Positions 24,741 through 63,651 of a DNA stretch of 64,000 nt are shown here, one piece after another. How positions within the stretch are numbered: the stretch's first letter is position 1; each line of letters opens with the position of its first letter. The notes under the pieces were generated by a model. That model had not been told where the DNA came from, ran no database searches, and was given only the letters and a program-made list of their open reading frames with translations. The position numbers were made by a program, and so were the translations under genes. The DNA is from Escherichia coli (GTDB lineage Bacteria; Pseudomonadota; Gammaproteobacteria; Enterobacterales; Enterobacteriaceae), in the NCBI RefSeq assembly GCF_041886205.1, contig NZ_CP169030.1; one strand, given 5' to 3'.

Positions 24741-25631
24741 TCAGGCTGCCAGATCATCGTTTCCGATGGAAGCATAATAAGCTTTTTCTGCTTCTGCCGG
24801 AGGAGTATGGCCCAGCCTTTCCAGCAATCGTCGATTGTTATACCAGTCCACCCACGTGAGTGTGGCCAGTTCCACTTCTGCACGGTTTTTCCAGCTCTTA
24901 CGGTGTATTACCTCCGCTTTGTAAAGACCATTGATGCTCTCCGCCATCGCGTTGTCATACGAGTCGCCTGTACTTCCTGTTGATGCCAGTAATCCGGCTT
25001 CCTTAAGCCGCTGTGTGTAGGCCAGCGATACATACTGAGAACCTTTATCACTGTGATGGACCGTGCCGGACGGTCGACGGGCCCATAACGCCTGCTCCAG
25101 TGCATCCAGCACGAATGTCGTTTCCATGGACGATGAGACCCGCCACCCCACGATGTATCCGGCAAACACATCAATGATGAACGCCACATAGACGAAGCCC
25201 CGCCATGTGCTGACGTAAGTAAAATCAGCCACCCACAGCTGGTCAGGTCGTTCTGCCACGAACTGACGGTTTACGCGGTCGCCTGCGGCAACGGCTTTCC
25301 GGCTGATGGTCGTACGGACCTTTTTACCCCGGAGAACACCGGCAAGTCCCATAACCGCCATGAGACGTGCCACAGTGCATCTGGCCACTCTGATACCTTC
25401 CCGTAACAACTGACGCCAGACTTTACGCACACCGTATACCTTGTGATTTTCATCGTATACGCGCTGTATCTCTTTCTTCAGCCAGTCATCGCGCTGCGCA
25501 CGGGCACTGCGTTTATCCGGATGATGTCGCTGTTGCTGACAGTGGTAATACGTTGACGGGGCAATATGCAGTTCGCTGCATAGCGGTCCGACCCCGTACT
25601 GCTCACGCAGCTTATCCAGCAGTGGCATCAT
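24741..25631 (-). CDS. IS3-family transposase OrfB (IS629-like)
   Basis: 296 aa DDE transposase. Confidence 0.8.
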
Positions 25632-25954
25632 TTTTTCCAGAGGCGGTCGAACTCCGCCTTCGCAAAATAAGCGGAAGCCTGGCGAAGGATATCGTTACTG
25701 CGGCGCAGTTCACGATTTTCACGTTCCAGCTCTTTCAGACGCTGACGTTCAGCGGTGGTGAGCCCTCCATCACCGCCCCCGGTATCCCGCTCATGCTGGC
25801 GAACCCAGACACGCAGAGTCTCCGGCGTACAGCCAATCTTTGGAGCAATGGAACAAATTGTCGCCCATTGTGAGTCATATTCGCTCTGACTTTCCAGAAC
25901 CATACGGACTGCCCGTTGACGGACTTCGGGGGAAAAACGAGTATTTTTAGTCAT
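25628..25954 (-). CDS. IS3-family transposase OrfA (IS629-like)
   Basis: 108 aa HTH protein [19 protein letters not shown]... Confidence 0.8.
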
Positions 25955-40810: not shown

Positions 40811-41086
40811 CTACCTGTTTTCTCGTGTGTGCCACAGGCGCAATACATAAATAGTCTGGCCATTAAGTTCGTAACGGATTTCGTACTCGCCAGCAAAAAT
40901 CCGTCTGACCTCCCTGGGTTCAAACTGAAACAACTGTTCTCCCATACGTGGATGAGTTAACAGAATGACCGGTGCCTGTGTCAGGGATTGCACCGTTCTG
41001 GCGGCCGCAGGTTTACTGGCCAGCACCAGAAAATCATATAACCGCGCCAAATCAGAAAGCGCCTTACTGGTCCACTTCAGTTCCAT
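40811..41086 (-). CDS. ParE/RelE-family toxin
   Basis: 91 aa; C-terminal YVLRLWHTRE typical of ParE/RelE fold. Confidence 0.7.
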   Translation of the reverse strand: MELKWTSKALSDLARLYDFLVLASKPAAARTVQSLTQAPVILLTHPRMGEQLFQFEPREVRRIFAGEYEIRYELNGQTIYVLRLWHTRENR

Positions 41087-41370
41087 CAGCGTGGCACCGG
41101 TAACGGATTGTCAGTACTGAGGCTGTCCGCCCAGGCCTGTACAGCCTGATGGTCGATAACCTGTCCGGATGTCACATCGTCCAGGGCTTCCAGCGTCAGG
41201 CGATTACGCTCCTCCTCCTGGGCAAGCCATGCAGAAAGCGCCTGTTTGATAACCCAGCCCCGGGAGCGTTCCAGCCTGGCGGCCATCTGGTCGACTTTAT
41301 CAGCCATAGGTAATGGCACATGCGCGGTAATGACTTTTGTTGCTTGTGCACTATTGTTTTTCATTTGCAT
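41086..41370 (-). CDS. ribbon-helix-helix antitoxin (ParD/CopG-like)
   Basis: 94 aa; overlaps toxin start by 1 nt. Confidence 0.65.
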   Translation of the reverse strand: MQMKNNSAQATKVITAHVPLPMADKVDQMAARLERSRGWVIKQALSAWLAQEEERNRLTLEALDDVTSGQVIDHQAVQAWADSLSTDNPLPVPR

Positions 41371-41466
41371 ATCCGATTAGTTGTTAATCATATTTAATCA
41401 TAGTGATTACATTCAGACCGAACAAGGCAAATAATGCGCATCTGCGCATGTAAGGCAGCATACGGA

Positions 41467-41520
41467 GGTTACATGTAACACAGGTGTAAAACCGCCAAAG
41501 CCCGGCGTAAGCCGGTACGG
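41467..41520. repeat. 54-bp GC-rich element with internal palindrome CCGGC..GCCGG, copy 1
   Basis: GGTTACATGT...GTAAAACCGCC(A/G)AAGCCCGGCGTAAGCCGGTACGG; second copy at 63652-63705. Confidence 0.6.
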
Positions 41521-41565
41521 TCGTCCGAATATCACCAGTCCCACTCCGGCCCTGCGAGGCCATGT

Positions 41566-41603
41566 GGGGGGAACCGCAGAATTCGGAAAAAATCGTACGC
41601 TAA
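41566..41603 (+). repeat. 38-bp terminal inverted repeat (mcp end) GGGGGAACCGCAGAATTCGGAAAAAATCGTACGCTAAG
   Basis: Read directly. Confidence 0.85.
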
Positions 41604-41755
41604 GCTAACGGTGTTCTCGTGACAGCTCTTTGACTAGGCTTTCTAAGGCCATTCTGATAGCCCTGACTTCCTGAAAAGCCATGGCTAAAATTTGTGCGGC
41701 TAAAAGGGATAACCGATGGTAAAGTAAGTTATCCCTGTCGAGATACTGAAAAGCG

Positions 41756-43333
41756 TTATCCTCGTTTTTCCCAAAACTGTTTTGCCAGTTCGCTCAGAGC
41801 GCTAGTTAACTGAGCGACAGATTTCGCACTTTGCAAATTATTCTGCCCGGTCTGTACATTGGTATCAGCAGCATCGCGTATATTGATAATACTGCGGTTT
41901 ATGTCTTCACTTACTGCTCCCTGCTGCTCGACCGCAGTCGCTATTTGCGCGTTCATGTCGGTAATTTCGTTAACGCGTTGGCCAATTCCATCAAGAGCTG
42001 TAGCTGCTTCCTCTGCGTGAGCTACACTCGTGTGCGCTTGCCGACTACTTTGCTCCATGACTGTAACAGCGGATTGCGCTCGCTCTTGTAGAGCGCTGAT
42101 CATGCTTTGAATATCCGTTGTCGATTGCTGTGTGCGAGCAGCAAGACTGCGAACCTCATCGGCGACAACAGCAAAACCACGCCCCTGCTCACCAGCACGC
42201 GCGGCCTCAATTGCTGCGTTGAGTGCCAACAAATTCGTTTGCTCGGCGATCCCTCGTATAACGTCAAGAACTTTTGATATCTCGTTACTTTGACCTTCAA
42301 GCTCATGAATAACCTGAGTGGCTTGCCTAATTTCACCTTCAAGGGCAGTGATTGACTGGCTTGTGTGGGCTACCAGACGCTGGCCAGATGCCGTCTCAGT
42401 GTCTGCTCTTCCGGCCGCATCTGCAGCATGCTGTGCATTGCTCGCAACCTCTTGAATGCTTGCCACCATTTGGTTTACTGCCGTTGCTATTTGATCTGTC
42501 TCTGCCTGCTGCTCAACTGTAAGTACATTGCTTGACTCAATATCCTTTAGTAGGCCTCGGGTGTGTTCGCTAAGCCGATTTGATGCATCACCTATGCGAC
42601 CTACTATGGCGCCTGTTTCAGCTTGCATCATTCGTAAAGCAAACTCTATTTGGCCAAACTCATCGGTGCGCCCAGTGTAGAGGGATTGACTTAATGGGTT
42701 ATTGGAAATATTCTTGGCTCTTTCAACCAGTCTTCCAAGAGGAGAGAGAATAGCCAAAACACTAACAGAGCTTAAGCTTCCTGACATTAAAGTGGCTAAC
42801 AATAAGCTGCTTATTGATGTATCAGTAAGCATGCCGGCAGCCATTGCGCTTGATATAATACTACCCCATATGAGCAAGAGTATTTTCACGGAAAAGCTAG
42901 CAGCCAATTTCGGCCTCGCGGCCTTCCCGCTTCTCAATTGAGCATATAATTTTTCCGCAGCCAAAACCTGCTCAGGTTCAGGCTTGGTCCTTACAGACTG
43001 GTATTCAACAATCGAACCATTCTTAGCTATTGGCGTTACATAAGCACTTACCCAATAGTGGTCGCCATTTTTACAGCGATTTTTTACTAGCCCCATCCAT
43101 GAGCGGCCAGATTTTAATGTACTCCACATATGCTCAAATGCAGCAGGCGGCATATCTGGGTGTCTTACGATGTTGTGAGGCTGGCCTAATAGTTCTTCCT
43201 CAGTGAAACCACTGATTTTAATGAAGTCAGGATTAACGTACGTGATATGGCTTTGAGGGGAGGTAGTCGAAAGAATATTGGCATCTTTTGGGAGTTCTAA
43301 GTTTCGACCCGTCACTGGTAAATTCTGGCGCAT
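41756..43333 (-). CDS. methyl-accepting chemotaxis protein with PAS domain (Tn1721 orfI-like)
   Basis: 525 aa; PAS-like N-terminus, transmembrane segments, MCP signalling domain. Confidence 0.8.
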
Positions 43334-43625
43334 AAGAACCTCAAGGGTTGGCTGTTTTATTTTATTGTTTTCGGCATTAAGCCCAATTTCTTGAGCGTTA
43401 CGATAAAGCTAGCATGGAAACGATAGGTGCAAGCAAGTTAAGGGTTGCATCGCGCATGTCAATCTAGGCTATACCCTAACTTGATGTCAGGCAGGGCCGC
43501 GCCGCTTCGTCAGAATAGAGTCTGCTTTCCCATTTTTTGACACATGCCCGCGAAGGTTATAGATTTCAGCCTGACAGAAATGGGCTTTGAGGCACAACGG
43601 AACAGAAAGTGCACTTAAGCCGCCT

Positions 43626-43650
43626 TGTCATTTTCAGAAGACGACTGCAC
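43626..43650 (+). repeat. Tn402 IRt (TGTCATTTTCAGAAGACGACTGCAC)
   Basis: Read directly. Confidence 0.85.
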
Positions 43651-43766
43651 CAGTTGATTGGGCGTAATGGCTGTTGTGCAGCCAGCTCCTGACAGTTCAA
43701 TATCAGAAGTGATCTGCACCAATCTCGACTATGCTCAATACTCGTGTGCACCAAAGCGAGGTGAGC

Positions 43767-45446
43767 ATGGCGACGGACACCCCACGGATTCCAGAACAAG
43801 GCGTGGCCACTCTGCCTGATGAGGCTTGGGAGCGTGCGCGCCGTCGTGCGGAGATCATCAGTCCGTTGGCGCAGTCGGAGACGGTCGGGCACGAAGCGGC
43901 CGATATGGCGGCTCAGGCGCTGGGCTTGTCTCGGCGCCAGGTATACGTTCTGATCCGGCGTGCCCGGCAAGGCAGCGGCCTCGTGACGGATCTGGTGCCC
44001 GGCCAGTCCGGTGGAGGTAAAGGTAAGGGGCGCTTGCCGGAACCGGTCGAGCGCGTCATCCACGAGCTACTGCAAAAGCGGTTCCTGACCAAGCAGAAGC
44101 GCAGCCTAGCGGCCTTTCACCGCGAAGTCACTCAGGTGTGCAAGGCTCAAAAACTGCGAGTGCCGGCGCGCAATACCGTGGCCTTACGGATCGCTAGCCT
44201 TGACCCGCGCAAGGTCATCCGCCGGCGGGAAGGCCAGGATGCCGCTCGTGACCTACAAGGTGTGGGCGGCGAGCCTCCTGCCGTGACCGCGCCGCTGGAG
44301 CAGGTGCAGATAGACCATACGGTCATCGACCTGATCGTGGTCGATGACCGCGACCGGCAACCTATTGGCCGCCCGTACCTGACCCTCGCCATCGACGTGT
44401 TCACCCGCTGCGTGCTCGGCATGGTCGTCACGCTGGAAGCGCCGTCTGCCGTTTCGGTTGGCCTGTGCCTCGTGCATGTCGCCTGCGACAAGCGCCCTTG
44501 GCTGGAAGGACTGAACGTGGAAATGGATTGGCAGATGAGCGGCAAGCCCTTGCTGCTCTACCTAGACAACGCGGCCGAGTTCAAGAGCGAGGCCCTGCGC
44601 CGGGGTTGCGAGCAGCATGGCATCCGGCTGGACTATCGCCCGCTGGGACAGCCGCACTATGGCGGCATCGTGGAACGGATCATCGGCACGGCGATGCAGA
44701 TGATTCACGACGAACTGCCGGGAACGACCTTCTCCAACCCTGACCAGCGCGGCGACTACGATTCCGAAAACAAGGCCGCCCTGACGCTGCGCGAGCTAGA
44801 GCGCTGGCTCACATTGGCGGTCGGCACCTACCACGGTTCGGTGCACAACGGCCTGCTCCAACCGCCGGCCGCGCGCTGGGCCGAGGCCGTGGCGCGTGTC
44901 GGCGTACCGGCCGTCGTCACACGCGCTACTTCGTTCCTGGTCGATTTTCTGCCGATCCTCCGGCGCACGCTGACCCGCACCGGCTTTGTCATCGACCACA
45001 TCCACTACTACGCCGATGCGCTCAAGCCGTGGATTGCGCGGCGTGAACGCTGGCCGTCCTTTCTGATCCGGCGCGATCCGCGCGACATCAGCCGTATCTG
45101 GGTCCTGGAACCGGAGGGACAGCATTACCTGGAAATTCCCTACCGTACCTTGTCGCATCCGGCTGTCACCCTCTGGGAACAACGGCAGGCGCTGGCGAAA
45201 CTGCGGCAGCAAGGGCGCGAACAGGTGGATGAGTCGGCGCTGTTCCGCATGATCGGCCAGATGCGTGAGATTGTGACCAGCGCGCAGAAGGCCACACGCA
45301 AGGCGCGGCGTGACGCGGATCGCCGCCAGCACCTCAAGACATCAGCTCGGCCGGACAAGCCCGTTCCGCCGGATACGGATATTGCCGACCCGCAGGCAGA
45401 CAACTTGCCACCCGCCAAACCGTTCGACCAGATTGAGGAGTGGTAG
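43767..45446 (+). CDS. tniA: TniA transposase (DDE)
   Basis: 559 aa starting MATDTPRIPEQG, as recalled for Tn402 TniA. Confidence 0.85.
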   Translation: MATDTPRIPEQGVATLPDEAWERARRRAEIISPLAQSETVGHEAADMAAQALGLSRRQVYVLIRRARQGSGLVTDLVPGQSGGGKGKGRLPEPVERVIHELLQKRFLTKQKRSLAAFHREVTQVCKAQKLRVPARNTVALRIASLDPRKVIRRREGQDAARDLQGVGGEPPAVTAPLEQVQIDHTVIDLIVVDDRDRQPIGRPYLTLAIDVFTRCVLGMVVTLEAPSAVSVGLCLVHVACDKRPWLEGLNVEMDWQMSGKPLLLYLDNAAEFKSEALRRGCEQHGIRLDYRPLGQPHYGGIVERIIGTAMQMIHDELPGTTFSNPDQRGDYDSENKAALTLRELERWLTLAVGTYHGSVHNGLLQPPAARWAEAVARVGVPAVVTRATSFLVDFLPILRRTLTRTGFVIDHIHYYADALKPWIARRERWPSFLIRRDPRDISRIWVLEPEGQHYLEIPYRTLSHPAVTLWEQRQALAKLRQQGREQVDESALFRMIGQMREIVTSAQKATRKARRDADRRQHLKTSARPDKPVPPDTDIADPQADNLPPAKPFDQIEEW

Positions 45447-46357
45447 CCGTGGACGAATATCCCATCATCGACCTGTCCCACCTGCTGCCGGCGGCCCAGG
45501 GCTTGGCCCGTCTTCCGGCGGACGAGCGCATCCAGCGCCTTCGCGCCGACCGCTGGATCGGCTATCCGCGCGCAGTCGAGGCGCTGAACCGGCTGGAAGC
45601 CCTTTATGCGTGGCCAAACAAGCAACGCATGCCCAACCTGCTGCTGGTTGGCCCGACCAACAATGGCAAGTCGATGATCGTCGAGAAGTTCCGCCGCACC
45701 CACCCGGCCAGCTCCGACGCCGACCAGGAGCACATCCCGGTGTTGGTCGTGCAGATGCCGTCCGAGCCGTCCGTGATCCGCTTCTACGTCGCGCTGCTCG
45801 CCGCGATGGGCGCGCCGCTGCGCCCACGCCCACGGTTGCCGGAAATGGAGCAACTGGCTCTGGCACTGCTGCGCAAGGTCGGCGTGCGCATGCTGGTGAT
45901 CGACGAGCTGCACAACGTGCTGGCCGGCAACAGCGTCAACCGCCGGGAATTCCTCAACCTGCTGCGCTTCCTCGGCAACGAACTGCGCATCCCGTTGGTT
46001 GGGGTAGGCACGCGCGACGCCTACCTAGCCATCCGCTCCGATGACCAGTTGGAAAATCGCTTCGAGCCGATGATGCTGCCGGTATGGGAGGCCAACGACG
46101 ATTGCTGCTCACTGCTGGCCAGCTTCGCCGCTTCGCTCCCGCTGCGCCGGCCTTCCCCAATTGCCACGCTGGACATGGCTCGCTACCTGCTCACACGCAG
46201 CGAGGGCACCATAGGGGAACTGGCGCACTTGCTGATGGCGGCGGCCATCGTCGCCGTGGAGAGCGGCGAGGAAGCGATCAACCATCGCACACTCAGCATG
46301 GCCGTTTACACCGGACCCAGCGAGCGGCGGCGGCAATTCGAGCGGGAACTGATGTGA
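45440..46357 (+). CDS. tniB: TniB ATP-binding protein
   Basis: Walker A GPTNNGKS; exact start codon uncertain. Confidence 0.8.
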   Translation: MVAVDEYPIIDLSHLLPAAQGLARLPADERIQRLRADRWIGYPRAVEALNRLEALYAWPNKQRMPNLLLVGPTNNGKSMIVEKFRRTHPASSDADQEHIPVLVVQMPSEPSVIRFYVALLAAMGAPLRPRPRLPEMEQLALALLRKVGVRMLVIDELHNVLAGNSVNRREFLNLLRFLGNELRIPLVGVGTRDAYLAIRSDDQLENRFEPMMLPVWEANDDCCSLLASFAASLPLRRPSPIATLDMARYLLTRSEGTIGELAHLLMAAAIVAVESGEEAINHRTLSMAVYTGPSERRRQFERELM

Positions 46358-47571
46358 AGCCTGCGCCGCGCTGGCCGCTGCATCCCGCCCCGAAAGAAGG
46401 CGAGGCGCTGTCCTCATGGCTCAACCGCGTGGCCCTTTGCTATCACATGGAGGAGCCCGACCTGCTGGAGCACGATCTTGGTCACGGCCAGGTCGATGAC
46501 CTGGACACCGCGCCACCACTCTCGCTGCTGGCGTTGCTTTCCCAGCGGAGCGGCATCGAGCTGGACCGGCTGCGCTGTATGAGTTTCGCCGGATGGGTGC
46601 CTTGGCTACTGGACAGCCTTGATGACCAGATTCCAGACGCCTTGGAAACCTATGCGTTTCAGCTCTCGGTGTTGCTGCCAAGACTCCGCCGTAAGACGCG
46701 ATCCATCACGAGCTGGCGTGCCTGGCTGCCCAGCCAGCCGATAAACCGCGCCTGTCCGCTCTGCCTGAGCGATCCGGAGAACCAAGCCGTACTGCTCGCG
46801 TGGAAGCTGCCCCTGATGCTGAGCTGCCCGCTGCATGGCTGCTGGCTGGAATCCTATTGGGGCGTGCCAGGGCGGTTTCTCGGCTGGGAGAACGCCGACG
46901 CCGAACCGCGCACCGCCAGCGACGCGATTGCGGCGATGGACCAGCGTACCTGGCAGGCACTGACAACCGGTCACGTGGAGCTGCCGCGCCGACGCATCCA
47001 CGCCGGATTGTGGTTTCGACTTCTTCGCACGCTGCTCGATGAGCTGAACACCCCGCTTTCCGCGTGCGGAACCTGCGCGGGGTATCCCCGCCAAGTCTGG
47101 GAAGGCTGCGGGCATCCGCTGCGTGCTGGGCAAAGTCTGTGGCGACCGTATGAAACCCTGAATCCGATAGTACGGTTACAGATGCTGGAGGCGGCGGCAA
47201 CGGCAATCAGCTTGATTGAGGTGAGGGACATCAGCCCGCCAGGCGAGCAGGCAAAGCTATTCTGGTCCGAGCCCCAAACCGGGTTCACCAGTGGCCTGCC
47301 GACGAAAGCGCCGAAGCCCGAGCCCATCAATCACTGGCAGCGTGCAGTCCAGGCCATCGACGAGGCCATCATTGAAGCGCGACACAACCCCGAGACGGCA
47401 CGCTCGCTGTTCGCGTTGGCTTCCTATGGTCGGCGCGATCCCGCTTCCTTGGAACGGTTGCGCGCCACCTTCGTGAAGGAAGGCATCCCGCCGGAATTTC
47501 TGTCACATTACCTGCCTGATGCACCCTTTGCATGTCTTAAACAAAATGACGGGTTAAGTGACAAATTTTGA
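46354..47571 (+). CDS. tniQ: TniQ
   Basis: 405 aa from GTG at 46354; ORF-track extension from 46084 judged spurious. Confidence 0.75.
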   Translation: MKPAPRWPLHPAPKEGEALSSWLNRVALCYHMEEPDLLEHDLGHGQVDDLDTAPPLSLLALLSQRSGIELDRLRCMSFAGWVPWLLDSLDDQIPDALETYAFQLSVLLPRLRRKTRSITSWRAWLPSQPINRACPLCLSDPENQAVLLAWKLPLMLSCPLHGCWLESYWGVPGRFLGWENADAEPRTASDAIAAMDQRTWQALTTGHVELPRRRIHAGLWFRLLRTLLDELNTPLSACGTCAGYPRQVWEGCGHPLRAGQSLWRPYETLNPIVRLQMLEAAATAISLIEVRDISPPGEQAKLFWSEPQTGFTSGLPTKAPKPEPINHWQRAVQAIDEAIIEARHNPETARSLFALASYGRRDPASLERLRATFVKEGIPPEFLSHYLPDAPFACLKQNDGLSDKF

Positions 47572-47617
47572 CGGATAGAGCTTTCCGGCTCACACTGTCA
47601 CATAATCGAACGTATAC

Positions 47618-48256
47618 GTGACGGGTGAAAAGGTGCTGATCGGCTACATGCGGGTATCGAAGGCGGACGGATCCCAGTCCACCAATTTGCAACGCGATGC
47701 GCTCATCGCCGCTGGTGTGAGCCTTGCGCACCTTTACGAGGATCTGGCCTCGGGCAGGCGCGATGATCGCCCAGGGTTGGCTGCTTGCCTGAAGGCGCTT
47801 CGTGAAGGGGACACGCTGATCGTGTGGAAGCTCGATCGGCTTGGCCGTGATCTGCGCCACCTGATCAACACCGTGCACGACCTAACTGCGCGTAGCGTGG
47901 GCCTGAAGGTCCTGACCGGTCACGGTGCGGCGGTCGACACGACGACTGCCGCCGGCAAGCTTGTGTTCGGTATTTTTGCCGCGCTGGCCGAGTTCGAGCG
48001 TGAGTTGATTTCCGAGCGAACAGTCGCTGGACTTATCTCGGCGCGCGCTCGCGGCAGGAAAGGGGGGCGCCCCTTCAAGATGACCGCCGCCAAGCTACGC
48101 CTGGCGATGGCCAGCATGGGGCAACCGGAAACCAAGGTGGGCGATCTCTGCGAAGAACTCGGGATTACCCGGCAGACGCTCTACCGGCACGTGTCGCCCA
48201 AGGGCGAACTGCGGCCAGACGGCGTAAAGCTGCTCTCCCTCGGTTCAGCCGCATAA
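47618..48256 (+). CDS. tniR: TniR (TniC) serine resolvase
   Basis: 212 aa; N-terminal LIGYMRVSKADGSQ serine-recombinase motif. Confidence 0.8.
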   Translation: MTGEKVLIGYMRVSKADGSQSTNLQRDALIAAGVSLAHLYEDLASGRRDDRPGLAACLKALREGDTLIVWKLDRLGRDLRHLINTVHDLTARSVGLKVLTGHGAAVDTTTAAGKLVFGIFAALAEFERELISERTVAGLISARARGRKGGRPFKMTAAKLRLAMASMGQPETKVGDLCEELGITRQTLYRHVSPKGELRPDGVKLLSLGSAA

Positions 48257-48460
48257 ATGGAGGCGACCTGGAACGGGGCGCTGTTCAGTGCGGCAACGAT
48301 CCGATTACCGGTGTCGACCCAGAGCAGCCGTAGAGCTTTTGGGAAAGCTGTCGTTCAACGTTTGACGTGAGGGGCCGCCGTAGCGGCGAAGCCGCGAAGG
48401 GAACCCGCAAGCGCAGCTTGTGGGCGGTCCCTCTCGACGGAATGGTTAGATGCGACCGTT

Positions 48461-48793
48461 TTAGTGAACACTTGCCTTAGATAGCAAGTTGAGCACAGCA
48501 ACGCCGCTGATAATGAAGCCGACACCAACAAATCCCCACATATCTAGTTTTTGACCATGCAAAACCCATGCAATCGCAGTGACCAAGACGATCCCGAGGC
48601 CCGACCAAACTGCGTAGGCGATTCCAACAGGAATCGATTTGAGTGTCAGCGACAGGAAATAAAAAGCAGCAGCGTATCCCGCTACGACGATAAAAGACGG
48701 TACTAACCTAGTAAAGCCCTCACTAGACTTGAGCGCAGAGGTTGCAATGACCTCAAAAATAATGGCCGTAGCCAGAAATAACCAATTTTTCAA
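48461..48793 (-). CDS. qac: SMR-family quaternary-ammonium efflux protein on a gene cassette (qacE-related, full length)
   Basis: 110 aa (TTG start) immediately downstream of attI1; intact SMR C-terminus ...[10 protein letters not shown] rather than the qacEdelta1 tail. Confidence 0.75.
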
Positions 48794-48895
48794 AATATTT
48801 CTCCATGGAGTTCCGCGAAGAAATTTTAGGTTCGATTTAAGAAAAAAAACAGTCTTGTTGCTGGCCGAAATTTGTGCGCACAGCAAAGCATCTAA

Positions 48896-48960
48896 CTTTG
48901 TTTTAGGGCGACTGCCCTGCTGCGTAACATCGTTGCTGCTCCATAACATCAAACATCGAC
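48896..48960 (-). promoter_or_regulatory. attI1 integron recombination site (copy 1, intact)
   Basis: GCCCTAAAACAAAG|TTA junction read on minus strand at 48893-48909. Confidence 0.65.
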
Positions 48961-49031
48961 CCACGGCGTAACGCGCTTGCTGCTTGGATGCCCGAGGCAT
49001 AGACTGTACAAAAAAACAGTCATAACAAGCC

Positions 49032-50045
49032 ATGAAAACCGCCACTGCGCCGTTACCACCGCTGCGTTCGGTCAAGGTTCTGGACCAGTTGCGTGAGCGC
49101 ATACGCTACTTGCATTACAGTTTACGAACCGAACAGGCTTATGTCCACTGGGTTCGTGCCTTCATCCGTTTCCACGGTGTGCGTCACCCGGCAACCTTGG
49201 GCAGCAGCGAAGTCGAGGCATTTCTGTCCTGGCTGGCGAACGAGCGCAAGGTTTCGGTCTCCACGCATCGTCAGGCATTGGCGGCCTTGCTGTTCTTCTA
49301 CGGCAAGGTGCTGTGCACGGATCTGCCCTGGCTTCAGGAGATCGGAAGACCTCGGCCGTCGCGGCGCTTGCCGGTGGTGCTGACCCCGGATGAAGTGGTT
49401 CGCATCCTCGGTTTTCTGGAAGGCGAGCATCGTTTGTTCGCCCAGCTTCTGTATGGAACGGGCATGCGGATCAGTGAGGGTTTGCAACTGCGGGTCAAGG
49501 ATCTGGATTTCGATCACGGCACGATCATCGTGCGGGAGGGCAAGGGCTCCAAGGATCGGGCCTTGATGTTACCCGAGAGCTTGGCACCCAGCCTGCGCGA
49601 GCAGCTGTCGCGTGCACGGGCATGGTGGCTGAAGGACCAGGCCGAGGGCCGCAGCGGCGTTGCGCTTCCCGACGCCCTTGAGCGGAAGTATCCGCGCGCC
49701 GGGCATTCCTGGCCGTGGTTCTGGGTTTTTGCGCAGCACACGCATTCGACCGATCCACGGAGCGGTGTCGTGCGTCGCCATCACATGTATGACCAGACCT
49801 TTCAGCGCGCCTTCAAACGTGCCGTAGAACAAGCAGGCATCACGAAGCCCGCCACACCGCACACCCTCCGCCACTCGTTCGCGACGGCCTTGCTCCGCAG
49901 CGGTTACGACATTCGAACCGTGCAGGATCTGCTCGGCCATTCCGACGTCTCTACGACGATGATTTACACGCATGTGCTGAAAGTTGGCGGTGCCGGAGTG
50001 CGCTCACCGCTTGATGCGCTGCCGCCCCTCACTAGTGAGAGGTAG
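49032..50045 (+). CDS. intI1: class 1 integron integrase IntI1 (copy 1)
   Basis: 337 aa; matches recalled IntI1 sequence. Confidence 0.95.
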
Positions 50046-50222
50046 GGCAGCGCAAGTCAATCCTGGCGGATTCACTACCCCTGCGCGAAGGCCATCGGTG
50101 CCGCATCGAACGGCCGGTTGCGGAAAGTCCTCCCTGCGTCCGCTGATGGCCGGCAGCAGCCCGTCGTTGCCTGATGGATCCAACCCCTCCGCTGCTATAG
50201 TGCAGTCGGCTTCTGACGTTCA

Positions 50223-50247
50223 GTGCAGCCGTCTTCTGAAAACGACA
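50223..50247 (+). repeat. Tn402 IRi (internal copy)
   Basis: GTGCAGCCGTCTTCTGAAAACGACA read directly. Confidence 0.85.
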
Positions 50248-50329
50248 TTTGAACCGGGAACCTTCCCTTTTTGGCTAGGCGTGAAACAATGGTCATTTTC
50301 CCTATACCCAAAATGACCAGGAGGCCCGC

Positions 50330-50407
50330 ATGAAAGTCGCACGCATCTACCTGCGCGTGAGCACGGAGGAACAAGACCTAAGCCGGCAGGATGCCATCGT
50401 GGAGAGC
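50330..50407 (+). pseudogene. 5' fragment of a serine resolvase gene (MKVARIYLRVSTEEQDLSRQDAIVES), truncated by the 88-bp repeat
   Basis: 26 codons with serine-recombinase N-terminal motif, then abrupt junction. Confidence 0.5.
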
Positions 50408-50495
50408 TTAAATAAGACCGTCCCGTAAATTTCAGCCGAATCCGACAAAAAGGCGTGAAGATTTCCTTTAAATAGAGAGACCGAAGGTCATCCTT
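50408..50495 (+). repeat. 88-bp direct repeat flanking the tet(M) segment, copy 1
   Basis: TTAAATAAGACCGTCCCGTAAATTTCAGCCGAATCCGACAAAAAGGCGTGAAGATTTCCTTTAAATAGAGAGACCGAAGGTCATCCTT; identical at 52999-53086. Confidence 0.85.
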
Positions 50496-50968
50496 TTCCT
50501 AAAAAAGGGGGGGGCCATGGTTCCAAGATGTAAAATCGAGGGCTAATTCAGGCTATACTTGAACTATCCTTAATGGAATCTTTAGCCAGCGGTATCAACG
50601 AAGCAAGAAACATCGAAGACTAATTAAAAGAATCCATACATAACGGAAAGAGCCGATAAAATGAGATTGTATTAATCTCATTTTATCGGCTCTGCGTCTT
50701 TGCGTCTGGCTCTGTAATCGCAGTTACTTTGAACTGCTTTATTTCAATTAAATTTTCTTGTCTGCATTTCGGACAATAGAGGGGGAATTTTTTTAATTCA
50801 GTATCTTCCCTTATCTTTAATCGTGTTTTATTTCCACATACAGGACACAATATCCACTTGTAGTTTATAATAACTATCTCCTCCTTTACACTTTAATTCA
50901 AATCTTTATTAAAAAATATTTCATCTTATTTAACAAGAAACCATATTTATATAACAACATAAAATACA

Positions 50969-52888
50969 CTAAGTTATTTTATTGAACATATATCGTACTT
51001 TATCTATCCGACTATTTGGACGACGGGGCTGGCAAACAGGTTCACCGGTAGTAACATGGTACCCTTTTAACTCTGTTAAACAAACACTACGTCCATTTGT
51101 AAAGAAAGTTAAATCACTACGATATTCTTGAATACACCGAGCAGGGATTTCTCCACTAAGAATGACCTCATTATTTTTCAATTGAGTGTCTACGATGTTC
51201 GCACAATATTTAGGAGCATCGTTGTATGCTCGTGAAAGATATTCCTGTGGCGCATAAATTTTAAAACTAAGATATGGCTCTAACAATTCTGTTCCAGCTT
51301 TTTTTAAGACTTGTTCCAATACAATAGGAGCAAGCATCCGAAAATCTGCTGGGGTACTAACAGGGCTATAGTATAAGCCATACTTAAAACAGATTTTACA
51401 GTCCGTCACATTCCAACCATACAATCCTTGTTCACAGCCATAGCGTATCCCTTCCATAACTGCATTTTGAAATGATTGATTTAAGTATCCAAGAGAAACC
51501 GAGCTCTCATACTGCATTCCACTTCCCAACGGAAGCGGTGATACAGATAAACCAATGGAAGCCCAGAAAGGATTTGGCGGCACTTCGATGTGAATGGTAT
51601 ATTCTGCATTTTTTAACGGTCTCTCCATATAAATGACTGTAGGCTCTTTTAGTTCTATCTCCACATGATACTTTTCTTGCAACAGTGCACTAATCACTTC
51701 CATTTGTACTTTCCCTAAGAAAGAAAGTATAATTTCATGTGTCGTAGAATCCACGTAATATCGTAGAAGCGGATCACTATCTGAGATTTCCAAAAGGGCA
51801 TCAAGCAACATTTCTCTCTGTTCAGGTTTACTCGGTTCAACAGTTGTTTGTAGTAGAGGGTGCGGATTTTCAATCTTTTTTCTCTGTGGCAATAGTTTTG
51901 TATCTCCAAGAACACTATTTAACTTCAAAAACTCATTTTGCAAAATAACAATTTCCCCGGAATAAGCCTTATCGATTTTACATAATTCACCATTTATTGA
52001 AGTATACATTTCTGTAATTTTTATTTTTTCCTTTTCCGATATTCTAACCGAATCTCGCAAATGCAGTACGCCACTATAAAGACGTATATATGCAAGACGT
52101 TGTCTTTTTTTTGTATATTCAATTTTGAAAACATTTCCGCAAAGTTCAGACTGACCTCGATGTGTTGATGAATAAAATTTATTCGTAATCACTTCTATAA
52201 GGTTATCAATCCCTATATTGTTTTTTGCACTTCCATGATAAAGAGGGAACAGAGAACAATTCTGAAATCTTATGCTTTCCTCTTGTTCGAGTTCCAATGC
52301 TTCTAATGATTTACCGGACATATATTTCTCTAAAAGGTCATCGTTTCCCTCTATTACCGTATCCCATTGTTCAGATTCGGTAAAGTTCGTCACACACATA
52401 TTAGGATACAGTTCTACCTTCTGTTTGATTACAATTTCGGCAGAAAGTTTCTCTTTAATATCCTGATAAACCGTTGATAAATCAATTCCATTTTGGTCAA
52501 TCTTATTGATAAAAAAGATTGTGGGAATCCCCATTTTCCTAAGTGCATGAAATAATATACGAGTTTGTGCTTGTACGCCATCTTTTGCAGAAATCAGTAG
52601 AATTGCCCCATCTAAAACTGATAATGAACGATATACTTCTGCTAAGAAATCCATATGTCCTGGCGTGTCTATGATGTTCACCTTCGTATTTTCCCACTGA
52701 AAAGAGGTTATTCCTGTCTGAATTGTAATTCCTCTCTGACGTTCTAAAAGCGTATTATCCGTCCTCGTTGTACCTTTGTCCACGCTTCCTAATTCTGTAA
52801 TCGCTCCACTGTTATATAATAAGCTTTCTGTTAAGGTAGTTTTTCCCGCATCAACATGAGCTAAAACTCCAATATTAATAATTTTCAT
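50969..52888 (-). CDS. tet(M): Tet(M) ribosomal-protection tetracycline resistance protein
   Basis: 639 aa from [39 protein letters not shown]...; translational GTPase fold; very close to recalled Tet(M). Confidence 0.95.
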
Positions 52889-52903
52889 GTGATTTTCCTC
52901 CAT

Positions 52904-52990
52904 TCAAAAGCCCAAAAGGGCATAAAAATCCCAGTGATAAATACTCTTATCACTGGGATTTTTATGCATAACCATAGGCATACAAAGCAT
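52904..52990 (-). CDS. tet(M) leader peptide (Tn916 orf12-like attenuation leader)
   Basis: 28 codons MLCMPMVMHKNPSDKSIYHWDFYALLGF directly upstream of tet(M). Confidence 0.7.
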   Translation of the reverse strand: MLCMPMVMHKNPSDKSIYHWDFYALLGF

Positions 52991-52998
52991 ACAGATAT

Positions 52999-53086
52999 TT
53001 AAATAAGACCGTCCCGTAAATTTCAGCCGAATCCGACAAAAAGGCGTGAAGATTTCCTTTAAATAGAGAGACCGAAGGTCATCCTT
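52999..53086 (+). repeat. 88-bp direct repeat flanking the tet(M) segment, copy 2
   Basis: Identical to 50408-50495. Confidence 0.85.
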
Positions 53087-53131
53087 GAAGAAGGAGTCCT
53101 CGGTGAGATTCAGAATGCCGAACACCGTCAC
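53087..53131 (-). pseudogene. sul1: sul1 5' fragment (codons 2-16: VTVFGILNLTEDSFF) fused to truncated attI1
   Basis: Minus-strand GTGACGGTGTTCGGCATTCTGAATCTCACCGAGGACTCCTTCTTC matches recalled sul1 start; joined at ...CAGCAGG|GTGACGG. Confidence 0.7.
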
Positions 53132-53247
53132 CCTGCTGCGTAACATCGTTGCTGCTCCATAACATCAAACATCGACCCACGGCGTAACGCGCTTGCTGCT
53201 TGGATGCCCGAGGCATAGACTGTACAAAAAAACAGTCATAACAAGCC

Positions 53248-54261
53248 ATGAAAACCGCCACTGCGCCGTTACCACCGCTGCGTTCGGTCAAGGTTCTGGA
53301 CCAGTTGCGTGAGCGCATACGCTACTTGCATTACAGCTTACGAACCGAACAGGCTTATGTCCACTGGGTTCGTGCCTTCATCCGTTTCCACGGTGTGCGT
53401 CACCCGGCAACCTTGGGCAGCAGCGAAGTCGAGGCATTTCTGTCCTGGCTGGCGAACGAGCGCAAGGTTTCGGTCTCCACGCATCGTCAGGCATTGGCGG
53501 CCTTGCTGTTCTTCTACGGCAAGGTGCTGTGCACGGATCTGCCCTGGCTTCAGGAGATCGGAAGACCTCGGCCGTCGCGGCGCTTGCCGGTGGTGCTGAC
53601 CCCGGATGAAGTGGTTCGCATCCTCGGTTTTCTGGAAGGCGAGCATCGTTTGTTCGCCCAGCTTCTGTATGGAACGGGCATGCGGATCAGTGAGGGTTTG
53701 CAACTGCGGGTCAAGGATCTGGATTTCGATCACGGCACGATCATCGTGCGGGAGGGCAAGGGCTCCAAGGATCGGGCCTTGATGTTACCCGAGAGCTTGG
53801 CACCCAGCCTGCGCGAGCAGCTGTCGCGTGCACGGGCATGGTGGCTGAAGGACCAGGCCGAGGGCCGCAGCGGCGTTGCGCTTCCCGACGCCCTTGAGCG
53901 GAAGTATCCGCGCGCCGGGCATTCCTGGCCGTGGTTCTGGGTTTTTGCGCAGCACACGCATTCGACCGATCCACGGAGCGGTGTCGTGCGTCGCCATCAC
54001 ATGTATGACCAGACCTTTCAGCGCGCCTTCAAACGTGCCGTAGAACAAGCAGGCATCACGAAGCCCGCCACACCGCACACCCTCCGCCACTCGTTCGCGA
54101 CGGCCTTGCTCCGCAGCGGTTACGACATTCGAACCGTGCAGGATCTGCTCGGCCATTCCGACGTCTCTACGACGATGATTTACACGCATGTGCTGAAAGT
54201 TGGCGGTGCCGGAGTGCGCTCACCGCTTGATGCGCTGCCGCCCCTCACTAGTGAGAGGTAG
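53248..54261 (+). CDS. intI1: class 1 integron integrase IntI1 (copy 2)
   Basis: Identical 337-aa translation to copy 1; at least one silent nucleotide difference (49121 T vs 53337 C). Confidence 0.95.
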
Positions 54262-54438
54262 GGCAGCGCAAGTCAATCCTGGCGGATTCACTACCCCTGC
54301 GCGAAGGCCATCGGTGCCGCATCGAACGGCCGGTTGCGGAAAGTCCTCCCTGCGTCCGCTGATGGCCGGCAGCAGCCCGTCGTTGCCTGATGGATCCAAC
54401 CCCTCCGCTGCTATAGTGCAGTCGGCTTCTGACGTTCA

Positions 54439-54463
54439 GTGCAGCCGTCTTCTGAAAACGACA
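54439..54463 (+). repeat. Tn402 IRi (outer copy) followed by target duplication CGCCT
   Basis: Read directly. Confidence 0.85.
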
Positions 54464-54485
54464 CGCCTTCAACCAAGGAGACATC

Positions 54486-55046
54486 GTGCAGGGGCACCGC
54501 ATCGGCTACGTCCGGGTCAGCAGCTTTGACCAGAACCCGGAACGCCAGCTGGAACAAACCCAGGTGAGCAAGGTGTTCACCGACAAGGCATCGGGCAAGG
54601 ACACCCAGCGCCCCCAGCTCGAAGCGCTGCTGAGCTTCGTCCGCGAAGGCGATACAGTGGTGGTGCACAGCATGGATCGGCTGGCCCGCAACCTCGATGA
54701 CCTGCGTCGCTTGGTACAGAAGCTGACTCAGCGCGGCGTGCGCATCGAGTTCCTGAAGGAGGGCCTGGTGTTCACTGGCGAGGACTCGCCGATGGCCAAC
54801 CTGATGCTGTCGGTGATGGGGGCCTTCGCTGAGTTCGAGCGCGCCCTGATCCGCGAGCGGCAGCGTGAGGGCATCGCCTTGGCCAAGCAGCGTGGCGCGT
54901 ACCGGGGCCGCAAGAAAGCCCTGTCCGATGAGCAGGCTGCTACCCTGCGGCAGCGAGCGACGGCCGGCGAGCCCAAGGCGCAGCTTGCCCGCGAGTTCAA
55001 CATCAGCCGGGAAACCCTCTACCAGTACCTCCGCACGGACGACTGA
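54486..55046 (+). CDS. tnpR: Tn3-family serine resolvase TnpR
   Basis: 186 aa MQGHRIGYVRVSSFDQNPERQ...; IRi lies only 22 bp upstream, i.e. within the expected res region. Confidence 0.9.
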   Translation: MQGHRIGYVRVSSFDQNPERQLEQTQVSKVFTDKASGKDTQRPQLEALLSFVREGDTVVVHSMDRLARNLDDLRRLVQKLTQRGVRIEFLKEGLVFTGEDSPMANLMLSVMGAFAEFERALIRERQREGIALAKQRGAYRGRKKALSDEQAATLRQRATAGEPKAQLAREFNISRETLYQYLRTDD

Positions 55047-55049
55047 CAC

Positions 55050-58016
55050 ATGCCGCGTCGCTTGATCCTCTCGGCCACGGAGCGGGACACCCTGCTTGCG
55101 CTGCCGGAAAGCCAGGATGACCTGATCCGCTACTACACCTTCAACGACTCCGACCTGTCGCTGATCCGCCAGCGACGCGGCGACGCCAACCGCCTCGGCT
55201 TCGCCGTGCAGCTCTGCCTGCTGCGCTACCCCGGTTACGCGCTGGGAACCGACAGCGAGCTGCCCGAGCCGGTCATCCTGTGGGTGGCGAAGCAAGTCCA
55301 GGCCGAGCCGGCGAGCTGGGCAAAGTACGGCGAGCGCGACGTGACCCGTCGCGAGCATGCCCAGGAACTGCGCACCTACCTGCAACTGGCCCCGTTCGGC
55401 CTGTCCGACTTCCGCGCCCTGGTGCGCGAGCTAACCGAGCTGGCCCAGCAGACCGACAAAGGCTTGCTGCTGGCCGGTCAGGCCCTGGAGAGCCTACGGC
55501 AGAAACGACGCATCCTGCCGGCGCTGAGCGTGATTGACCGGGCCTGCTCGGAAGCCATTGCGCGAGCCAATCGGCGGGTCTACCGCGCCCTGGTCGAACC
55601 ACTCACGGACTCGCATCGGGCCAAGCTGGACGAGCTGTTGAAGCTCAAGGCCGGCAGCAGCATCACCTGGTTGACCTGGCTGCGCCAGGCACCGCTGAAA
55701 CCCAACTCTCGGCACATGCTGGAACACATCGAGCGGCTGAAGACATTTCAGTTGGTGGACTTGCCCGAAGGCCTGGGCCGGCACATCCACCAGAACCGCC
55801 TGCTCAAGCTGGCCCGCGAGGGTGGGCAGATGACGCCCAAAGACCTCGGTAAGTTCGAGCCGCAGCGCCGCTACGCGACCCTGGCCGCCGTGGTGCTGGA
55901 GAGCACCGCGACCGTGATCGATGAGCTGGTCGATCTGCATGACCGCATCCTGGTCAAGCTGTTCAGCGGCGCGAAGCACAAGCATCAGCAGCAGTTCCAG
56001 AAGCAGGGCAAGGCGATCAACGACAAGGTGCGCCTGTACTCCAGGATCGGCCAGGCGCTGCTGGAAGCGAAGGAAAGCGGCAGCGACCCCTATGCCGCCA
56101 TCGAGGCGGTGATTCCCTGGGACGAGTTCACCGAGAGCGTCAGCGAGGCCGAGCTGCTGGCCCGGCCGGAAGGCTTCGACCACCTGCACCTGGTCGGCGA
56201 GAACTTCGCCACCCTGCGCCGTTACACGCCGGCCTTGCTGGAGGTGCTGGAACTGCGCGCCGCGCCGGCCGCGCAAGGCGTGCTGGCAGCCGTGCAGACC
56301 CTGCGTGAGATGAACGCCGACAACCTGCGCAAGGTGCCGGCCGATGCACCCACGGCCTTCATCAAGCCGCGCTGGAAGCCGCTGGTGATCACCCCGGAAG
56401 GCCTCGACCGGAAATTCTACGAAATCTGCGCCCTGTCCGAGCTGAAGAACGCCCTGCGCTCCGGCGACATCTGGGTCAAGGGCTCGCGGCAGTTCCGCGA
56501 CTTCGACGACTACCTGCTGCCGGCCGAGAAGTTCGCCGCACTCAAGCGCGAGCAGGCCCTGCCCCTGGCGATCAACCCGAACAGCGACCAGTACCTGGAA
56601 GAGCGTTTGCAGCTGCTGGACGAGCAGTTGGCCACCGTCACCCGCCTGGCCAAGGACAACGAGCTGCCCGATGCCATCCTCACCGAGTCAGGGCTGAAAA
56701 TCACCCCGCTGGATGCGGCGGTGCCGGATCGGGCGCAGGCGCTGATCGACCAAACCAGCCAGTTACTGCCGCGCATCAAGATCACCGAACTGCTGATGGA
56801 CGTGGACGACTGGACGGGCTTCAGCCGCCACTTCACCCACTTGAAGGACGGGGCCGAGGCCAAAGACAGGACGTTGCTGCTGTCCGCAATCCTCGGTGAT
56901 GCGATCAACCTCGGGCTGACCAAGATGGCCGAGTCGAGCCCCGGCCTGACCTACGCCAAGCTGTCCTGGCTGCAAGCCTGGCACATCCGCGACGAAACCT
57001 ATTCGGCGGCCTTGGCCGAGCTGGTCAACCACCAGTATCGCCACGCCTTTGCCGCCCACTGGGGCGACGGCACGACCTCATCCTCCGATGGCCAGCGCTT
57101 CCGCGCGGGTGGCCGGGGCGAGAGCACCGGGCACGTCAACCCGAAGTACGGTAGCGAGCCGGGACGGCTGTTCTATACCCATATCTCCGACCAGTACGCG
57201 CCGTTCAGCACCCGCGTGGTGAATGTCGGCGTCCGCGATTCCACCTATGTGCTCGACGGCCTGCTGTACCACGAGTCCGACCTGCGGATCGAGGAGCACT
57301 ACACCGACACGGCCGGCTTCACCGATCACGTCTTTGCCCTGATGCACCTGCTAGGCTTCCGCTTCGCGCCGCGCATCCGCGACCTCGGCGAAACCAAGCT
57401 GTACGTGCCGCAGGGCGTGCAAGCCTACCCGACGTTGCGCCCGCTGATCGGCGGCACCCTGAACATCAAGCACGTGCGTGCCCACTGGGACGACATCCTG
57501 CGCCTGGCCAGCTCGATCAAGCAGGGCACCGTCACCGCCTCGCTGATGCTGCGCAAGCTCGGCAGCTACCCGCGCCAGAACGGACTGGCCGTGGCCCTGC
57601 GCGAGCTGGGCCGGATCGAGCGCACGCTGTTCATCCTGGACTGGCTGCAAAGTGTTGAACTGCGCCGCCGCGTGCATGCCGGCCTGAACAAAGGTGAGGC
57701 GCGCAACTCGCTGGCCAGGGCGGTGTTCTTCAACCGCCTTGGGGAAATCAGGGATCGGAGCTTCGAGCAGCAGCGCTACCGGGCCAGCGGCCTCAACCTG
57801 GTGACGGCGGCTATCGTGCTGTGGAACACGGTGTACCTGGAACGCGCCACCCAGGGGTTGGTCGAGGCCGGCAAGCCGGTGGACGGCGAGCTGCTGCAAT
57901 TCCTGTCGCCGCTGGGCTGGGAGCACATCAACCTAACCGGCGATTACGTCTGGCGGCAGAGCCGCAGACTGGAAGACGGGAAGTTTCGGCCCTTACGGAT
58001 GCCCGGAAAACCTTAG
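55050..58016 (+). CDS. tnpA: Tn3-family transposase TnpA
   Basis: 988 aa; reads toward the terminal inverted repeat. Confidence 0.9.
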
Positions 58017-58049
58017 CGTACGATTTTTTCCGAATTCTGCGGGCTCCCC
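58012..58049 (-). repeat. 38-bp terminal inverted repeat (tnpA end) GGGGAGCCCGCAGAATTCGGAAAAAATCGTACGCTAAG
   Basis: Read directly as reverse complement; overlaps tnpA stop. Confidence 0.85.
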
Positions 58050-58567: not shown

Positions 58568-59863
58568 TCAGAGCTTATTCTCTGCTGTCTGATAGCCACG
58601 GCTGAGACGAACAAACAGCATTGCCGTTGCGGCGAGTCCGCATAGCGCCGCGCACATGAGCCACCACCCCGGAGAACTCTTATCGCCGGTCAACTGGACC
58701 AATGCGGTGGAGATAGCAGGCGTCAGGCCGCCGAAAATCGCAGTCGCAAGACTAAAGGCCAGCGAAAAACCCACGGTTCGGACATAAACCGGCATCACTT
58801 CGGTCAGGGCCGCCACCATCGCACCGTTATACATGCCAAAAAAGAACGAGAACCAGAGCAGCACCAACGTCATGCGGGTGAAGTCAGGGGCAGCGGTAAG
58901 CCAGTTCATCACCGGCCAGGTGGTGACGAGGGCGAGCAAGGTGATGCCCATCAGCACCGGGCGTCGCCCGATCCGATCAGAGATAGCGCCGCCAATCGGC
59001 AGCCAGATGAAGTTAGAAATCCCTACCAGCATGGTGACAACCAGGCTGTCACGTGCGCTCAGGTTCAACACCGTTCTCCCGTAAGTGGGGGTATAGACAG
59101 TAATAAAATAAAAGGTCGTGGTCGTCATCGCTACCAGCAGGGTACCCGCGGTGATGATGCGCCAGTTTTTAGCAATGGTGGTAAAAATTTCCCGGGTGTC
59201 CGGACGGTGTTTACGTTGTAAAAAGGCTTCAGTTTCCTGTAGCGAACGTCGAAGAACAAAAATCAGCGGAATAATCATGCAGCCAATGAAGAACGGGATT
59301 CGCCAACCCCATTCGGAGATTTCATCGTGTCCCAGCGTGACATTCAGACCGTAGCCGATCAGCGCGGCGACGACAATCGCCACCTGCTGGCTGGCCGATT
59401 GCCAACTGGTGTAAAAGCCTTTATTGCCTGGTGTAGCGATCTCAGAAAGATAAACAGAGACGCCGCCCAGTTCGACGCCAGCAGAAAATCCCTGTAGCAG
59501 ACGCCCCACCAGGACCAGCACGGGAGCCAGCAGGCCGATAGTCTGATAACCCGGCACGAGGGCGATGAGCAGCGTGCCGCAGCCCATAATCGCCAGGGTG
59601 ACCATCAGCCCTTTCCGTCGGCCGATTCTGTCGATATATGCGCCCAACACCACGGCCCCGATAGGGCGCATTAAAAATCCGGAGCCAAAAACGGCAAAAG
59701 TAAGCATTAATGCGGCAAACTCACTTTCGGCAGGAAAAAACGTCTTTGCGATATAAGTGGCGTAAAAACCAAACAGGAAAAAATCGAACTGTTCGAGAAA
59801 ATTACCGCTGGTCACACGCAGTATTGCGCCGAACGTGCCAGCGCGCGATGGTTGTTGAGTCAT
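58568..59863 (-). CDS. tcuC: MFS transporter, tricarballylate/citrate-type (TcuC-like)
   Basis: 431 aa, 12-TM MFS; located downstream of tcuA/tcuB. Confidence 0.65.
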
Positions 59864-59917
59864 TGAAGTTGCTCCACTGTCTTATCAGAATTATGTATAG
59901 AGGTAAGAGTTTGCGGG

Positions 59918-62447: not shown

Positions 62448-62543
62448 CGTCTACTCCATTACCATTTAACTATTTGTTAAATTTGTAATTGAAATGTATA
62501 CGTATGATTGTATGGGCGCTATAACGAATAGCTAAAGATGGGT

Positions 62544-63470: not shown

Positions 63471-63651
63471 TGCGATTCTCCGGAGAAGGCTGGGATATTT
63501 ACATTAAATCAACATGCTGTCAGAAGAAAGCACTAAGTAGAGAATGGCGCGCATAACAAAACAACCGACAGGTTGACTTTTCAGAATAGGGGCAGTTTGG
63601 TGATCGTCACCAGTATATGCAGCGTCAGCTGCATGGAAGGCGGCACGCTGT

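Follow-up and report, generated by a model that had tools for sequence, protein, structure and literature searches.

The described systems that come closest to the element analysed here are the leading-strand start sites of plasmids R1 and R100, the ssi of the IncI1 plasmid ColIb-P9, the oric of phage G4 and the Frpo/ssi signals of the F leading region. In R1 the leading strand reportedly starts at a G site that depends on primase, some 380–400 bp downstream of oriR, and in NR1 it is said to start near the 3′ end of repA4. Plasmid G sites are said to share conserved blocks and not to resemble G4, and an ssi reportedly lies close to the replication origin of ColIb-P9. The gene order of R100 provides the frame for these statements. 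The repA gene (43813–44670 in R100) is followed by a perfect DnaA box at 44846 and then by oriR, and the ORF annotated as 'repA4' (45033–45419) holds two inverted Ter sites, at 45073–45095 and 45207–45230. A transposon screen showed the repA4 region downstream of ori, with its ter sites, to be necessary for pEC958 maintenance (PMC4398462). The identification of ssi sequences in R100 (Nomura 1991) is cited in PMC7690428, and a paper on miniR1 lists an 'ssiA' beside oriR1, the origin of which is not stated there.

Two copies of an ori-distal replicon element

The window, i.e. the whole stretch of 64,000 nucleotides of Escherichia coli DNA that was analysed, belongs to an IncFIA/IncFIC conjugative plasmid and is near-identical to NZ_AP024116.1 and CP063715.1. 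The original prediction described a GC-rich palindromic element of 54 bp at two distant sites, with about 85% identity between the copies. The element is indeed present at 41467–41520 (copy 1) and 63652–63705 (copy 2), with a somewhat higher identity of 91% (49/54 nt) between the copies. A 35-nt core with one R position has exactly two matches in the window, against an expectation of zero from 100 shuffles. The similarity between the copies is longer than was noted: ungapped extension gives 98 nt at 78% identity (41446–41543 versus 63631–63728), and a profile and a covariance model delimit full elements of 131–134 nt in direct orientation. In the transposon-free relative CP077380.1 the duplicated unit measures 259 bp, with 83% identity. 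The predicted inverted repeat CCGGC..GCCGG is found in both copies, and their predicted surroundings were likewise recovered. Copy 1 is separated by 10 bp from a 38-bp inverted repeat of the Tn1721 type, and copy 2 lies ∼140 bp upstream of the start of tcuR (62544–63470, minus strand), between this gene and an IncFII-family repA which, judged from sibling plasmids, is situated ∼470–720 bp past the window end. The features of the two copies and of their surroundings are as follows.

63609–63742, + strand: copy 2, complete structured element on the ori-distal side of the resident IncFII/FIC-type replicon, putative G site; 105 bits with the full covariance model
63617–63634, + strand: hairpin III of copy 2, ATGCAGC-GTCA-GCTGCAT; compensatory changes in all 7 pairs across the family
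63639–63681, + strand: stem II of copy 2, GGCGG (63639–63643) pairing with CCGCC (63677–63681); 95% of the cells paired, 5 pairs with double changes
63687–63700, + strand: hairpin I of copy 2, CCGGC-GTAA-GCCGG; 149/150 cells Watson-Crick in the profile alignment
63738–63740, + strand: near-invariant CTG of copy 2 at the 3′ edge of the structured domain, from the family alignment; candidate start trinucleotide for primase
63776–63870, no strand assigned: highly conserved block of ∼95 nt between Ter and copy 2; most columns at least 90% conserved in ∼26 replicons
63909–63931, − strand: Tus-binding Ter site of the resident replicon, between oriR and copy 2; its reverse complement ATTATGAATGTTGTAACTACATC matches the Ter core
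40811–41370, − strand: RelE/ParE toxin (40811–41086) and RHH antitoxin (41086–41370), the cargo module of copy 1; from the ORFs and the annotation of the identical region in relatives
41426–41556, + strand: copy 1, complete orphan element with neither oriR nor repA beside it, attached to RHH-RelE; 75 bits with the full covariance model
41434–41449, + strand: hairpin III of copy 1, ATGCGC-ATCT-GCGCAT, from the sequence; the stem differs from that of copy 2 and the pairing is kept
41502–41515, + strand: hairpin I of copy 1, CCGGC-GTAA-GCCGG, from the sequence
41552–41554, + strand: conserved CTG of copy 1, from the sequence, 12 nt before the transposon end
41567–41604, + strand: 38-bp inverted repeat of the Tn1721/Tn1722-like unit, from a repeat search, with its partner at 58012–58049; not part of the element

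Elsewhere in the window, Rfam matches were obtained to the ALIL pseudoknot (an IS3-type frameshift signal) and to the attI/aminoglycoside-leader (25557–25673; 48871–48942). Two segments of 300 nt (48915–49214 and 53131–53430) are 100% identical, which fits the duplicated intI1 flanking tet(M) in the sibling plasmid, and a large ORF-like region at 11865–13280 contains four tandem repeats of 372 nt.

Comparison with R100 provides a family for the element, to which the original prediction could assign none. The window sequence 63603–64000 is 93.7% identical over 398 nt to the R100 region downstream of ori, and copy 1 is 76% identical to R100 over 130 nt; with the covariance model R100 itself scores 106 bits. 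The R100 element occupies 45394–45527, and its conserved CTG (45396–45398) precedes the repA4 stop by 21 nt and follows the estimated oriR boundary at a distance of ∼364 bp. The element is thus found ∼360–490 bp beyond oriR, past a Ter site, and the Ter site in the window is homologous to that at 45207–45230 in R100 and is conserved across the family. Taken together, the 94% identity to R100 and the position of the Ter core show the element to be the outermost part of the IncFII/IncI basic replicon. A GC-rich hairpin block (63941–63975; ccggccctttgggccgg ggcggggccgcttttcag), just on the origin side of Ter, is conserved across the family as well.

A count across genomes, proposed along with the original prediction, places the element in 3907 of 5426 complete E. 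coli genomes (72%), with a median of one copy per genome having any. Almost all places are plasmid-borne, 6485 versus 49 chromosomal ones. Identity with REP, ERIC or BIME sequences, for which many dispersed chromosomal copies would be expected, was rejected on this distribution (6485 of 6534 places on plasmids), in line with the original prediction. In the E. coli records the element is usually unannotated, or called 'hypothetical protein' or 'RepA4'. A distant BLAST search with the copy 1 region matches more than 5000 plasmid records, many of them at ∼1575–1985 in records starting at repA. When RepA was searched in one genome per species, 32 FII-type loci were obtained, and in at least 26 of these the element is present 750–1050 bp 3′ of repA. 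The host genera include Klebsiella, Citrobacter, Enterobacter, Pantoea, Erwinia, Yersinia (pestis), Hafnia, Serratia, Izhakiella, Mixta, Buttiauxella and others. A fixed position, ∼400 bp past oriR, distal to Ter and in repA orientation, holds for copy 2 and at least 26 other replicons; for copy 1, the oriR side of which is gone, it holds only historically. In Enterobacter genomosp. O, two tandem copies (4609–4741 and 4769–4881) are found downstream of one repA.

According to the conservation profile, the element is part of a conserved non-coding tract of ∼370 nt, in which the GC hairpin block, Ter, the ∼95-nt block and the element follow each other, and conservation stops right after hairpin III, where the cargo starts. 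The ∼95-nt block is more conserved than the element itself, from E. coli to replicons of Pantoea, Yersinia and Hafnia, and contains no conserved ORF. No reading frame over the tract is conserved across the family, which places the constraint on the DNA or its single strand, and not on a RepA4 protein. A coding role as the C-terminus of RepA4 was rejected for the same reason; moreover, most of the element lies past the stop of the R100 ORF.

Secondary structure and covariation

On the + strand of the window the element is organized, from 5′ to 3′, as hairpin III, stem II, hairpin I, a conserved block and the CTG. The three helices are well supported by compensatory changes. In a MAFFT alignment that was not fitted to the structure, 84.7% of the cells pair, as compared to 34–49% when the partners are slid, and 15 of 26 pairs have changed on both sides, versus 5.7 ± 1.7 in shuffled alignments, none of which (0/500) reaches 15. 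In the model-fitted alignment 87.4% of the cells are paired and 21 pairs show double changes. Independent folds of most members as single-stranded DNA recover the same hairpins. Folding of single sequences is mildly better than that of shuffles (z −1.4 to −1.7, which is not significant alone). A fourth helix, helix 0 (H0), is weak, with 70–72% of the cells paired.

Compensatory variants of hairpin I in the family include CCCGC/GCGGG and GCGGC/GCCGC. Stem II encloses a variable A/T-rich loop of ∼35 nt that contains CATATG or CATGTG, and one of its double changes yields GGTGCC/GGCACC. Hairpin III compensates even between the two window copies, with ATGCGC/GCGCAT in copy 1 and ATGCAGC/GCTGCAT in copy 2. 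Only one near-invariant CTG flanks the structure. It is located 3′ of the helices on the + strand of the window and is shared by 28 of the 29 aligned members; on the repA-sense strand it reads CAG. At position 41457, copy 1 differs from close relatives (pCFS3246-1) by an A in place of G, so that one stem II pair is broken on the + strand, which is consistent with relaxed constraint on an orphan copy.

An invariant hairpin CGCCG/CGGCG, proposed by RNAalifold from the raw MAFFT alignment, was rejected as the main structure because it is broken where hairpin I covaries, as seen in Citrobacter braakii and in an oriT-proximal copy of R100; stem II, on the other hand, shows true double changes. The asymmetry between G:T and A:C mismatches in the helices, as an indicator of the functional strand, offers too few informative cells and is affected by register problems.

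Mosaic origin of the two copies

The arrangement of the two copies can be read from the gene orders of relatives. The plasmid pTA115 is arranged as repA, ori, element, RHH, RelE. The transposon-free plasmid CP077380.1 shows the order RelE, RHH, copy 1, ∼900 bp, tcuCBAR, copy 2, Ter, ori, repA. In other plasmids, copy-1-type flanks extend another ∼135 nt in the direction of Ter, up to a common breakpoint. These two orders and the shared break show that copy 1 is the orphan flank of a different FII-type replicon, kept together with its RHH-RelE cargo upon loss of the oriR/repA side, and that copy 2 is that of the resident replicon. The tcu operon, and later the Tn1721-like element, came to lie between the copies. 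The tricarballylate operon tcuRABC (58568–63470 in the window) is bracketed by the direct copies, which in CP077380.1 are ∼5.8 kb apart.

The Tn1721-like unit spans 41567–58049 and is flanked by ATGTG and TTGTT, without a matching 5-bp target duplication. In addition, ∼213 bp that are present in relatives (6269–6481 in L001; also in L041) are missing beside it. The missing target duplication and the missing sequence point to either an adjacent deletion or a recombination between two insertions. The transposon event deleted the ancestral counterpart of block 63776–63870 from the copy 1 unit; in L041 this block is 96%-like between both units. The presence of the Tn1721-like element at 10 bp from copy 1 is a coincidence, and the link to a transposon end that the original prediction had drawn is incidental, since relatives carry both copies without the transposon.

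The pTA115 sequence is itself a mosaic: from the core toward the origin it is R100-like (94% identity), from the core toward the cargo it is copy-1-like (95% identity), and from these identities it follows that the conserved core served as a crossover point. Of the explanations offered by the original prediction, a recombination hotspot has some support from the crossover inside the core, as a by-product of conservation, and a relic of a rearrangement is borne out: homeologous flanks of two different FII-type replicons are joined in one mosaic plasmid. A simple segmental duplication, which had been named as a refuting outcome, is ruled out by the divergence of the copies (78–83% identical, i.e. 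a difference of ∼20%) and by the pTA115 mosaic. The duplication is real but ordinary and reflects plasmid mosaicism. Orphan copies betray past replicon fusions, and diverged plasmids can cross over within the conserved core. The outer limit of the IncFII/IncI basic replicon is set exactly by the element, and it is there that cargo such as toxin-antitoxin modules, the tcu operon and resistance transposons attaches.

A putative priming site and its described counterparts

The element is likely to correspond to the primase-dependent G site, or leading-strand start, of R1/R100, with copy 2 serving the resident replicon and copy 1 as its homeologous orphan. This assignment is based on position, on architecture and on the reported distance of the leading-strand start from oriR; priming by primase, the start site and the acting strand are inferred. 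The window + strand would be the template strand of copy 2. In the proposed mechanism, RepA and DnaA would open oriR and the helicase would unwind the downstream DNA, after which the + strand of the element would fold. DnaG primase would recognise this fold and begin a primer at the CTG, and the primer would be extended away from oriR as the leading strand. In this way copy 2 would accomplish priming for the resident FII/FIC replicon.

Several features of the element agree with a signal of the G4 type. A conserved single-strand structure is located 5′ of the candidate start, and a 5′-CTG-3′ is found at the 3′ side of this structure on the presumed template, where it may serve as the actual start. 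The reported distance of 380–400 bp and the reported location near the 3′ end of repA4 agree with positions 45396–45433 of R100. A second candidate start is the TACTG of R100, which abuts hairpin I and is the closest look-alike of the G4 start. Both window copies have TACGG at this place and the sequence varies across the family, so TACTG cannot be essential for an evidently functional replicon, and the exact start is uncertain. By our own reading of the Ter polarity, the blocking face of the Ter site that separates the element from oriR is turned to forks arriving from oriR, which is hard to reconcile with a simple passage of the helicase; in R100 the second Ter, which is inverted, lies nearer to oriR.

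A conserved part of the replicon that acts in cis without being a primase site, for example a PriA-type primosome site, a termination or stability function or a platform for host proteins, with the ∼95-nt block as the true G site, is an unlikely alternative to priming at the element. The arrangement of stem-loops followed by CTG on the presumed leading-strand template matches the logic of G4, and in R100 the distance of ∼364–400 bp from oriR agrees with the reported 380–400 bp. Furthermore, the ∼95-nt block is situated 3′ of the CTG on this template and would therefore not be copied into the primer. Such a cis function would nevertheless accommodate the higher conservation of block 63776–63870, which might be a second priming or primosome signal, and also the variability of the CTG adjacent to the hairpin, the failure of the covariance model of the element to detect G4 oric, and the association of the repA4 region with ter sites and stability (PMC4398462). 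It is very improbable that the element acts as RNA, whether as a small RNA, as a structure that stabilises a transcript or as a terminator shielding the origin from downstream cargo genes. Covariation cannot separate single-stranded DNA from RNA, and terminator-like hairpins with T runs are found on the repA-sense strand, at 63692–63678 in copy 2 and 41449–41434 in copy 1. However, the two window copies use different hairpins as 'terminators', and T runs are missing in most members while the stems are kept. No promoter-like site is found at copy 2, and Rfam yields no family at gathering thresholds and only chance-level hits (E-values of 2.7 and 4.8) at permissive ones. The small RNA suggested by the original prediction is thus not supported, as neither a promoter nor a terminator is conserved across the family. 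An intrinsic terminator was rejected on the same grounds, the T run being restricted to R100-type members and absent from most of the family.

That the element is associated with a transposon or is a generic dispersed repeat, i.e. an IS or Tn end, a target hotspot or a REP-like sequence, is hardly credible. The end of copy 1 is only 10 bp from the Tn1721-type inverted repeat, and several plasmids have insertions and cargo junctions clustered next to the element. On the other hand, this inverted repeat and the element are separate sequences, CP077380.1 has both copies but no transposon, and in thousands of plasmids without a nearby transposon the element is found at the same place in the replicon. 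Its fixed distance from repA in unrelated hosts and its near-absence from chromosomes argue in the same direction. Membership of a known IS end or terminator family, the other outcome named as refuting the original prediction, does not apply either, since the transposon repeat is distinct and the T runs are not conserved.

A scan of R100 and the complete sibling plasmid CP063715.1 reveals a third, diverged paralogue, 620–750 nt from the oriT nick motif and between the SLT and DUF932/945 genes. It is located outside the window, at 4813–4946 in R100 (68 bits) and at 10190–10323 in CP063715.1 (57 bits). The nick motif identifies the window + strand as the transferred strand, which puts all copies on the transferred strand in the priming-competent orientation. 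It is conceivable, if rather doubtful, that all copies could serve host primase as entry points for synthesis of the complementary strand in the recipient, in addition to Frpo, which depends on RNA polymerase, and that orphan copies are retained for that role rather than as debris. How and when this synthesis starts in the recipient has been described as unclear (PMC9849209).

As a putative G site the element is of a known kind, a long-known functional region of IncFII/IncI replicons that is ignored by annotation pipelines, and its novelty is low. Its identification removes a false lead, in that the motif does not represent a new repeat family and is unrelated to transposons, and shows it to be a standard part of the commonest replicon family of enterobacterial resistance plasmids. 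As the element is blank or misnamed in thousands of records, the family-wide covariation alignment could seed an annotation model. What remains of interest is the agreement in strand of the orphan and oriT-proximal copies, together with the ultra-conserved neighbouring block.

Among the described counterparts, the Frpo/ssi signals of the F leading region are also structured single-strand signals on the transferred strand (PMC7690428). Frpo comprises ∼328 nt, forms −35 and −10 boxes for RNA polymerase and is found upstream of leading-region genes, whereas the element comprises ∼130 nt, shows no promoter-like site at copy 2 and is located at the vegetative origin. Phage G4 oric, the prototype of a primase-only signal, likewise has stem-loops 5′ of a CTG on the template, with the primer copied back through them; in the G4 annotation the primer occupies 3970–3997 and the origin is at 3998. 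R100 shares the combination of a hairpin and TACTG with G4. The plasmid element, however, is longer, and its conserved CTG is ∼40 nt away from hairpin I, as compared to 3 nt in G4. Homology to G4 oric was rejected, and only the analogy was kept, as a BLAST search of the region against 50,697 phage records (E up to 10) and a covariance-model search of the G4 genome gave no match.

ColIb-P9 carries the same element after repZ and before the yacAB toxin-antitoxin pair, at 2205–2338 (99 bits). This layout, of replicon, element and RelE-type toxin-antitoxin module, matches the context of copy 1, although the initiator and the incompatibility group are different. The published ssi of ColIb-P9 may be the counterpart of the element at 2205–2338. 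From the G site region of R1/R100 the window copies differ by TACGG in place of the TACTG of R100, and copy 1 by the lack of an adjacent origin. The DNA is homologous and takes up the same map position past oriR and Ter, and in both cases the region is non-coding and rich in hairpins, with a CTG on the presumed leading-strand template.
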